DNA from: Escherichia coli O127:H6 str. E2348/69
GTDB taxonomy: Bacteria > Pseudomonadota > Gammaproteobacteria > Enterobacterales > Enterobacteriaceae
Length of the DNA: 64,000 bases
NCBI RefSeq assembly: GCF_000026545.1
Contig: NC_011601.1
Direction: 5' to 3' (one strand)
Position 1 is the first letter of the stretch, and each line of letters opens with the position of its first letter. Position numbers and translations under genes: made by a program. The notes beneath the pieces were generated by a model. The model was given only the letters and a program-made list of their open reading frames with translations. It was not told where the DNA came from and ran no database searches. Positions 18,848 through 19,832 of this stretch are shown here, piece by piece.

Positions 18848-19832
18848 TTTTTAACCCACACAATTCTTTTGTTATGTATTTCAGGCTTTGTTAACGTTTC
18901 AGCCAGAATGCTGCACTGTCTGTATATACAAAAAACTGAGTATTGGTGCTATCGTCACCGGTAACTGGAACTTTTACACGGGAGCATCAACCAAATTCGT
19001 TCTTTCATTGTATCCGCGTTATACGTGCATTCAAGCTACAAGATGATGAAAAACGCCTGTGTCTATTCTAGCAAGTGAACCGTCGTGAGTTCAACAGACA
19101 CAAGGGGCTACCCTTCAACAGATCCTGCTCTATGGTTGGGGGCCCCCCTTCGCGTTATGCGTTCTACGTTCATAAATGTTCGCTATTGGCACATGTCGGG
19201 TGAAATACTTGACCAAAAACTAAAGTACACGTGCCTAAGCAAAATCTGAAACTGAGAGACTGGCTAGTCAGAGTCGAATTTTACGCAAGGACTCGGTTCA
19301 ACTCTTTGTTTGGCAGTCTCTGCTCCCAAAAATGGTTTCATGCATATGATAAACCTTTTAGATTAGATTGAGCTCAGGTCAACAATAGTGTCAGATCGAG
19401 CACAAATCAGCACTAATGATGCTACACATCGTTTAGCACATCCAATTTTAGCCACCTAAAATGCGTTCTAATGCGGATATATGTCTACCTGCAATTCTTT
19501 CACCACTTCACACCGAAAACCTCAAATATCGGCTCCTATTACGTTTTTTCTCTGGCTGGGATTTTTACACGTCGAGAATAGGGAAAACATCCCAAAAAAC
19601 GCTTACAGTATTGACGTTACGTTGCAGGTATTCTGGCTTTCAGCATTACAACGCCAATATATATTATTGTTTTTAATATTGTTTTTATTTATCGTTATAA
19701 GATTGATTGTTTTTTATACATCAATTTTTCTATAAGAGTGAATCCTAAATATTGATATTTCTATGGGGTTGCCCTTCATCAAAATTGCGTTTTTTTCTAA
19801 GACTTTTGCTTTTTCATTGAGCTACGCGGATA

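Follow-up and report, generated by a model that had tools for sequence, protein, structure and literature searches.

The gene-free segment upstream of the Hailong operon on island IE4 of Escherichia coli E2348/69 is probably a patchwork of regulatory and junction DNA

The IE4 island and its Hailong cargo

The window analysed here is a stretch of 64,000 nucleotides of the E. coli O127:H6 str. E2348/69 chromosome. Its coordinates equal those of NC_011601 minus 2,848,000, as fixed by two sequence anchors from a published RIL-seq supplement, in which the genes E2348C_2788–2793 are labelled integrative element IE4 (PMC8550237). In the window, IE4 is a low-GC island of about 7.4 kb (about 15834–23300) between der and the sinH region, and its genes all lie on the minus strand. 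The following genes and limits are found from right to left:

21825–23096, minus strand: tyrosine integrase of IE4
21043–21738, minus strand: hypothetical protein of IE4
19992–20990, minus strand: Rep-like protein of 332 aa, IE4 backbone (Pfam PF23343 REP_ORF2-G2P, i-E-value 1.2e-5; phrog_30534, 1e-22)
19374–19460, no strand: start of the conserved island backbone in sister-island alignments, with the cargo/backbone junction at about 19374–19387
17726–18847, minus strand: halA, Hailong effector of 373 aa (NCBIfam NF051894 HalA equivalog, 295 bits against a cutoff of 250; halA in RefSeq)
17065–17724, minus strand: halB, Hailong nucleotidyltransferase of 219 aa (NCBIfam NF051895 anti_phage_HalB, 187.7 bits, marginally below the 190-bit cutoff; nucleotidyltransferase in RefSeq)
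15959–16558, minus strand: AlpA-type regulator of IE4

The segment under study, 18850–19460, belongs to the 1144 bp without genes that separate the Rep-like gene from halA, the first gene downstream. The initial annotation had placed it between a Rep/origin region and a cargo operon. This placement is borne out by the Rep ORF2/G2P domain of the ORF at 19992–20990 and by the identity of the neighbouring operon, halA/halB. The two genes are adjacent and co-directional, as expected for a Hailong anti-phage system, which consists of HalA and HalB in one operon. The halA start codon at 18847 is backed by conservation from the ATG on in the Serratia and metagenomic homologues. In the published model, HalA is a toxic effector of the membrane and has to be kept under tight control; it is restrained by HalB-made DNA and released by phage exonucleases, and the model has no RNA partner (review PMC13276650).

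The closest relatives of this operon are found in Serratia marcescens (L014, HalA 80% identical) and on two near-identical metagenomic contigs (L020 and L021, 78%). DNA homology with Serratia is 79% over 17050–18908, which comprises both genes and about 60 nt 5′ of the ATG. Beyond 18908 the similarity is weak and extends to about 19230 (local score 80 vs 41 ± 7 in shuffles). The upstream gene of the Serratia operon is a divergent LacI-type gene, and no co-directional upstream gene is present there. Hailong loci with 61–65% identity have 62–235 bp upstream, without detectable similarity to the segment. Loci whose HalA is 39–40% identical occupy the integrase–psu/delta slot of P4-like satellites, and in these halA begins 3 bp after the integrase gene or overlaps it. 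The scan of genome contigs with HalA gave one distant locus only. Since the distant operons have no upstream spacer, an RNA encoded in the segment would not be a general component of Hailong, and an upstream non-coding element is not an obligatory one.

The same island is present at the same site in other E. coli strains with other cargo, namely a DncV-like CBASS pair (L003), an AAA-ATPase/DUF2357 McrBC-like pair (L004) and two uncharacterised hypothetical proteins (L002). These sister islands align with the window at 91–98% only over 15834–16859 and to the right of the cargo junction. The rightward alignment starts at 19374 in the CBASS island (96%), at 19387 in the island with the two hypothetical proteins (98%) and at 19545 in the McrBC-like island (97%), and it reaches at least 24000. 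From these limits, the variable cargo corresponds to window 16860–19373. The cargo junction thus lies inside 18850–19460, and the segment therefore combines the non-coding DNA at the upstream end of the Hailong cassette with about 90 bp of backbone. The stretch 18848–19373 is present in only four of 5426 complete E. coli genomes. No tRNA or tmRNA gene was found in the scan, and no recombination motif common to both cargo junctions was seen. Two plus-strand ORFs on the backbone side, 19461–19676 and 19481–19735, were considered as genes and rejected; their frames are not preserved in the sister islands.

Features of the segment and a candidate halAB promoter

The right part of the gap, nearer to the backbone, is described in the next section. 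The following features lie between the palindrome and the halA start codon:

19138–19148, no strand: palindrome GGGGGCCCCCC (G5C6), with no evidence of function
19059–19101, no strand: nested inverted repeat GTGTCT...TGAAC-N8-GTTCA...AGACAC, which brackets and overlaps the promoter
19065–19094, minus strand: predicted sigma-70 promoter of halAB (9 of 12 in the promoter scan, with TG, and conservation)
18848–19064, minus strand: putative 5′ leader of the halAB mRNA, about 217 nt, from the spacing of the conserved −10 to the ATG
18952–19041, no strand: patch 75–77% similar to DNA of small Klebsiella/Citrobacter plasmids and an Enterobacter plasmid, unannotated there
18955–18968, no strand: IS1 insertion site in E. 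coli O6:H16 strain 2011EL-1370-2, whose island is otherwise 99% identical

The motifs that had drawn attention to the segment are indeed there. In the nested inverted repeat, GTGTCT (19059–19064) and AGACAC (19096–19101) enclose TGAAC-CGTCGTGA-GTTCA (19076–19093), and the palindrome GGGGGCCCCCC is found at 19138–19148. The segment also lacks any ORF of at least 60 aa with a start codon, the longest being 54 and 52 aa. Its longest stop-free stretch has 63 codons and lies below the shuffle mean of 74 ± 18, so that the missing ORFs are the normal look of non-coding DNA. The description as not AT-rich holds relative to the cargo genes (GC 42.2% vs 33.3% for halAB; 40.4% for the whole island) but fails relative to the surrounding core chromosome (about 50–55%). 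The nested hairpin has a folding energy of −8.4 kcal/mol (z = −1.47), and 19 of 200 shuffles fold equally well. The G5C6 palindrome is single in the window and is not conserved in two related Hailong upstream regions. As repeats and open frames, the observed features are real but no more than chance. Direct repeats GGGG(C/T)T(A/G)CCCTTC at 19104, 19139 and 19765 were also considered and discarded, as by our own estimate chance alone would give about this number of near-matches in 1.2 kb.

The initial annotation had also proposed that the segment carries the cargo promoter, and this reading is supported because the nested repeat falls on a 30 nt sigma-70 motif which has the orientation of halA and is invariant in three lineages. 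The motif is formed by a −35 box TTGAAC (19094–19089), an 18 nt spacer with TG and a −10 box TAGAAT (19070–19065). The form TTGAAC-N9-TT[C/G]ACTTGCTA[G/A]AAT is common to E. coli, Serratia and the two metagenomic contigs. This block is essentially invariant while the flanking DNA is about 55–60% identical, the three lineages being represented by four sequences of which the two metagenomic ones are near-duplicates. The motif occurs once only in the 64 kb window, and its conserved −10 lies 217 (window), 237 and 243 nt from the ATG in the three lineages. By itself the promoter scan is weak evidence, since promoter-like sites in the region are no commoner than in shuffles (three found vs 3.5 expected). 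The metagenome contigs scanned with the motif gave three matches, none of them adjoining halA or halB. Within the repeat, GTTCA(A) and ATTCTA are the reverse complements of the −35 and of the −10, respectively. The outer arms GTGTCT/AGACAC, like all of the arms beyond the promoter hexamers, show no conservation in Serratia or in the metagenomic locus. With its overlap with the promoter block and its unconserved arms, the inverted repeat is thus incidental to promoter DNA and not a conserved hairpin.

The conserved motif most likely is the active halAB promoter, with transcription starting near 19058. Hfq RIL-seq in EPEC recovered chimeras of Spot 42 with minus-strand RNA at window 18736–18811, i.e. 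the first codons of halA in RefSeq, a stretch called ‘IGR’ in the older annotation (RIL-seq supplement, PMC8550237). These chimeras indicate that the 5′ part of the halA mRNA is made in EPEC. Among the EPEC supplement rows listed, no transcript end falls inside 18900–19399, and in the EPEC transcript-end tables the only coordinate matches are K-12 rows. The proposed promoter resembles known sigma-70 extended −10 promoters that precede, with a long 5′ UTR, acquired defence or toxin operons, in its canonical hexamers, its TG and its placement on the operon strand. The halAB leader differs in being unusually long (217–243 nt), and no attenuator, riboswitch or leader peptide is recognisable in it.

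The last 60 nt or so before the ATG (18848–18908) are as conserved as coding sequence, and they could be a translational control site or a proximal promoter. No minus-strand ORF of at least 30 aa is found within the leader. The folding of the leader is at z = +0.35, so that its length is conserved but no structure is detectable. The plasmid-like patch at 18952–19041 contains a second promoter-like site on the minus strand (19034–19007, TTGAAT-16-TACAAT); patch and site are not conserved in the Serratia or metagenomic leaders. In strain 2011EL-1370-2, two megablast pieces overlap at 18955–18968 and an IS1 transposase is annotated between them. This IS1 separates the proposed promoter from halA, so that the operon of this strain is either silenced or sufficiently served by a proximal promoter or by one carried on the IS1.

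A decayed palindromic repeat next to the cargo junction

A decayed, non-coding repeat makes up about one third of the segment:

19178–19364, no strand: decayed copy of a dispersed palindromic repeat of about 187 bp (BLAST supports 19178–19340; the right arm, 19341–19364, is unrecognisable)

The stretch 19178–19340 has matches in unannotated DNA at several sites on plasmids of Rahnella, Erwinia, Klebsiella and Pseudomonas. Over positions 1–164 of the family consensus, the identity of the window copy is 77% (local alignment score 175 vs 28 ± 4 in shuffles), and only its left arm survives. The repeat unit has terminal inverted repeats of about 30 nt, GTCCGC..GGCACAGGCTGTGTGAAAAC / GTTTTCACACAGCCTG..GC..GCGGAC, and an inner inverted repeat, ACGCAAAATCTGG / CC.AATTTTACGT, with interior positions strongly conserved. 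A search with the consensus found the repeat in 45 plasmid records of at least 11 genera and in 137 E. coli chromosomes. Copies range over Enterobacterales and Pseudomonas at 69–96% identity with conserved length, at one to five per replicon and always one per E. coli genome, and they are flanked by unrelated accessory genes. End-to-end pairing is seen in an intact copy (z = −2.35) but not in the window copy (z = −1.04). RNAalifold of the family gives −10.4 kcal/mol, which reflects only the inverted repeats and shows no covariation. No Rfam family was found in a scan of intact copies. To our knowledge, this repeat of about 187 bp has no name.

Two other copies sit at the limits of modules. One lies between an RM/McrBC block and ICE core genes, and another sits exactly where homology to integrase-bearing islands ends. 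The expected end of the window copy (19364) is about 10 bp from the cargo junction, so that it may be a trace of the event by which cassette and island were joined. Neither the Serratia and metagenomic Hailong loci nor the sister islands carry the repeat, and hence it is not needed by either module. In two loci an ISEsa2-like IS110 element is inserted in the right terminal repeat, and in two other loci such an element is flanked by terminal-repeat-like GTCCGC.../...GCGGAC. These IS110 copies are insertions into the repeat and are not derived from it. IS110-family elements target REP-type palindromes (PMC1525189), and the insertions in or near the repeat fit this targeting. No target-site duplication is evident at the ends of aligned copies, and no parent element was identified.

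The family has two traits of MITE/REP-like elements, terminal inverted repeats and dispersed copies in unrelated contexts. It resembles REP/BIME and MITE-type repeats (e.g. ERIC) in being non-coding, of about 187 bp and built of terminal and inner inverted repeats, and in occurring on plasmids, on an ICE and on chromosomal islands in several genera. As with REP sequences, which are targets of IS110-family elements (PMC1525189; compare the bridge/seek RNA papers PMC11208160 and PMC11187229), ISEsa2-like IS110 copies are found in or beside it. It differs from REP/BIME and MITEs by its very low copy number and by the lack of a visible target-site duplication. Unlike REP/BIME it lies on accessory DNA and not in core intergenic regions, and the window copy is decayed.

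Three other ideas on the repeat were discarded. The metagenomic Hailong locus appeared to carry it in one MAFFT alignment, which was rejected by local alignment against shuffles. The repeat is not the bridge-RNA-bearing end of an IS110 element; the IS copies share sequence only from the right arm on, and they also occur without the repeat. In one locus (L011) the repeat lies beside an apparent tyrosine recombinase of 200 aa, which had suggested an invertible promoter switch. This ‘recombinase’ is the N-terminal part of an island integrase, and all 129 full-length E. coli matches consist of one colinear piece.

The window copy is probably inert, a decayed hitch-hiker. It is unlikely that it is a working cis element, such as an IS110 landing pad, a recombination site for cassette capture or a transcription insulator between the Rep-like gene and halAB. 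Its position within about 10 bp of the cargo/backbone junction, the similar position of other copies (between McrBC-type cargo and ICE core, and at the limit of integrase-island homology), the IS110 elements in or beside its terminal repeats, and the conservation of its length and of many interior positions would agree with such a role. The loss of its right arm and of its end-to-end folding, its absence from the two nearest Hailong loci and from the sister islands, the absence of a target-site duplication and of a common junction motif, and the lack of inversion variants among 129 E. coli genomes with the L011-type copy argue against it. In a more speculative reading, to which we give a low probability as a whole, the repeat would be a junction element not described so far, a conserved site in the mobile DNA of enterobacteria and pseudomonads where cargo cassettes and backbones become linked. 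It would be recognised by a recombinase, either the ISEsa2-like IS110 or another one, and the window copy would be a scar of the delivery of Hailong.

Interpretation of the segment and of the island

Taken together, the segment is probably the non-coding head of the Hailong (halA–halB) cargo cassette on IE4, and it is a patchwork and not one functional unit. From right to left, it would start with the last 90 bp or so of conserved backbone downstream of the Rep-like gene, which end at the cargo junction near 19374. The decayed and probably inert repeat copy (19364–19178) would follow. Next would come the sigma-70 extended −10 promoter at 19094–19065, from which halAB transcription would start near 19058, and finally an untranslated leader of about 217 nt ending at the halA ATG (18847). 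The segment is an ordinary regulatory and junction region and not a new structured RNA.

The initial annotation had considered a structured or antitoxin-type RNA and a decayed gene for the same DNA, and neither is supported by our data. That the segment encodes a discrete small RNA, structured or antitoxin-like, which regulates or neutralises the Hailong effector is very unlikely. A non-coding gap as long as 1144 bp, a toxic effector in need of tight control (PMC13276650) and a leader of conserved length would be in line with such an RNA. Rfam, however, gave no relevant match, either in the gathering scan of the whole window or at E ≤ 10 over 18700–20100. Folding of the whole 611 nt is not above shuffles on either strand (z = +0.47 on the plus and −0.79 on the minus strand). 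The alifold consensus of the three leaders has only −5.8 kcal/mol with negligible covariation, three sequences being a weak test. In the nearest relatives of this Hailong operon, the DNA at 18908–19374 is missing or shows little conservation, and the distant operons abut or overlap an integrase gene with no spacer at all. Among the RIL-seq rows listed, no Hfq-bound fragment falls in 18900–19399. The segment shares with the RNAs of type I and III toxin–antitoxin systems (Sok, ToxI) that it adjoins a toxic effector gene. Unlike these, it has no tandem repeats of the ToxI kind in 18850–19460, does not overlap halA and therefore has no antisense overlap with it, and gives no structure or conservation signal. 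In the published mechanism, the inhibitor of HalA is HalB-made DNA and not an RNA antitoxin (PMC13276650). A frameshifted remnant of a protein-coding gene is even less credible and we consider it extremely improbable. Several ORFs of 42–54 aa do exist on the plus strand. Twelve ORFs of at least 20 aa overlap the segment, and the nine longest (25–54 aa) were scanned; none matched an NCBIfam family, and PHROGs were hit only at E 0.09–0.15, i.e. never at E ≤ 0.01. Where the segment has DNA homologues in E. coli genomes and plasmids, no gene is annotated, the DNA search of the phage collection gave no match, and the longest stop-free run is shorter than in shuffles.

Another alternative concerns the promoter itself, and we judge it rather improbable. 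In this case the 30 nt motif would serve as an operator or would start some other short transcript. Transcription of halAB would come instead from a proximal promoter, no more than about 110 bp from the ATG, or from the Rep-like gene by read-through. The coding-like conservation of the last 60 nt or so before the ATG would suit a proximal promoter, and the IS1-bearing strain keeps halAB intact with only about 110 bp of native upstream DNA. Read-through is conceivable with all island genes on the same strand. On the other side, the promoter scan found no acceptable −35/−10 pair within 18848–18960, and the motif, which lies on the same strand as halA and includes a TG, is canonical in its sigma-70 geometry. 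The Serratia operon keeps the motif despite lacking a co-directional upstream gene, from which read-through could come. The halAB promoter at 19094–19065 is the reading that we prefer.

At the level of the island, IE4 can be compared with P4-like satellites (PMC9122126) and with the ‘integrase-only’ defence islands of E. coli (PMC10121019), all of which are small defence hotspots. Like those defence islands, IE4 has an integrase at one end and an AlpA-type regulator at the other, and a single slot in which unrelated systems interchange (Hailong, CBASS, the McrBC-like pair and the unknown pair). It differs from P4-like satellites in having a Rep ORF2/G2P-like protein in place of the P4 alpha, psu and delta genes, and it is integrated beside der and not at a tRNA gene.

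Little hinges on the segment itself, and its context is more useful. Hailong is shown to need no upstream RNA. With the motif and the DNA downstream of it, a native E. coli Hailong operon has a testable candidate promoter and leader, useful for expression of the system from its own control region. The low-copy palindromic repeat, found at junctions of mobile elements and attracting IS110 elements, may deserve a survey of its own. IE4 is one of a family of small integrase/Rep/AlpA islands beside der in which defence cargo is swapped at a fixed slot, and this family, together with the junction-associated repeat, is worth more than the segment from which the analysis started.

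The IE4 island family and its cargo

Together with the sister loci L002, L003 and L004, IE4 (window 15834-23300) forms a family of islands of ~7 kb, which are inserted beside der with no tRNA near. Their common layout comprises an integrase, a hypothetical protein, a Rep ORF2/G2P-like protein, ~600 bp of conserved non-coding DNA, one cargo slot and an AlpA-like regulator, and the cargo varies by strain: it is Hailong or CBASS in some, and a McrBC-like pair or an unknown pair in others. In this respect IE4-type islands are similar to the 'integrase-only' defence islands described previously (PMC10121019). 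Two overlapping, unannotated hypothetical genes of ~351 and ~235 aa are observed in L002 (7107-8862), the island of E. coli O7:H15 ST70. They occupy the slot held by Hailong in E2348/69, and this two-gene cargo is a candidate uncharacterised defence system. IE4 is directly adjoined by the following feature on its AlpA side, at the very point where the sister-island homology ends:

15568-15833, IS4-family transposase fragment, annotated pseudogene

More distant Hailong operons, with HalA 39-40% identical, are found in Yersinia and on metagenomic contigs (L031, L032 and L033). These are located in the integrase-psu/delta hotspot of P4-like satellites, and halA adjoins or overlaps the integrase gene there.

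Non-coding DNA of the backbone and the predicted halA leader

Beside the Rep-like gene, the backbone non-coding DNA at window 19545-19991 is nearly unchanged across the four islands. Comparison across the islands shows that the frame of plus-strand ORFs in this region is not kept. This non-coding DNA likely serves the Rep-like protein as an origin or as a control region, and the following repeats are identified within it:

19665-19687, 12 nt tandem repeat TATTGTTTTTAA x1.9, in an AT-rich stretch
19833-19854 and 19886-19907, two 22 nt GC-rich hairpin repeats

In the predicted halA leader, a patch of ~85 nt (window 18952-19041; L018 1505-1594; L019 3001-3081) matches unannotated DNA of small Klebsiella/Citrobacter plasmids at 75-77%, and it is present at four places in one 34 kb Enterobacter plasmid which has capsid genes. 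In the IE4 island of E. coli O6:H16 strain 2011EL-1370-2, an IS1 is inserted in the halA leader (L027 2636-3333; window 18955-18968) and the integrase is frameshifted.

The ~187 bp palindromic repeat

In Enterobacterales and Pseudomonas, the palindromic repeat of ~187 bp, to which no Rfam family matched, is a low-copy element carried by plasmids, genomic islands and an ICE, frequently at module junctions. At two loci (L025 3172, L008), ISEsa2-like IS110 elements are found inserted in its right terminal repeat. Copies are found at the following comparison loci:

L005 5007-5193
L011 7001-7171
L012 7001-7156
L006-L010 and L022-L026

Core RNAs and possible contacts with IE4 transcripts

Elsewhere in the window, Rfam matches known core-genome RNAs, which have no relation to the segment 18850-19460:

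40952-41256, ryfA
48513-48622, iscRS element
28024-28115, sroE
42089-42131, ES036

In the published Hfq RIL-seq data of EPEC (PMC8550237), Spot 42 forms chimeras with the first halA codons (window 18736-18811, minus strand), and an MgrR site is predicted at the junction between the halA stop and the halB start (17718-17732, minus strand). IE4 genes are also paired there with the core sRNAs ArcZ, MicF, MgrR and Spot 42. These pairings hint that core sRNAs contact the horizontally acquired defence island IE4.
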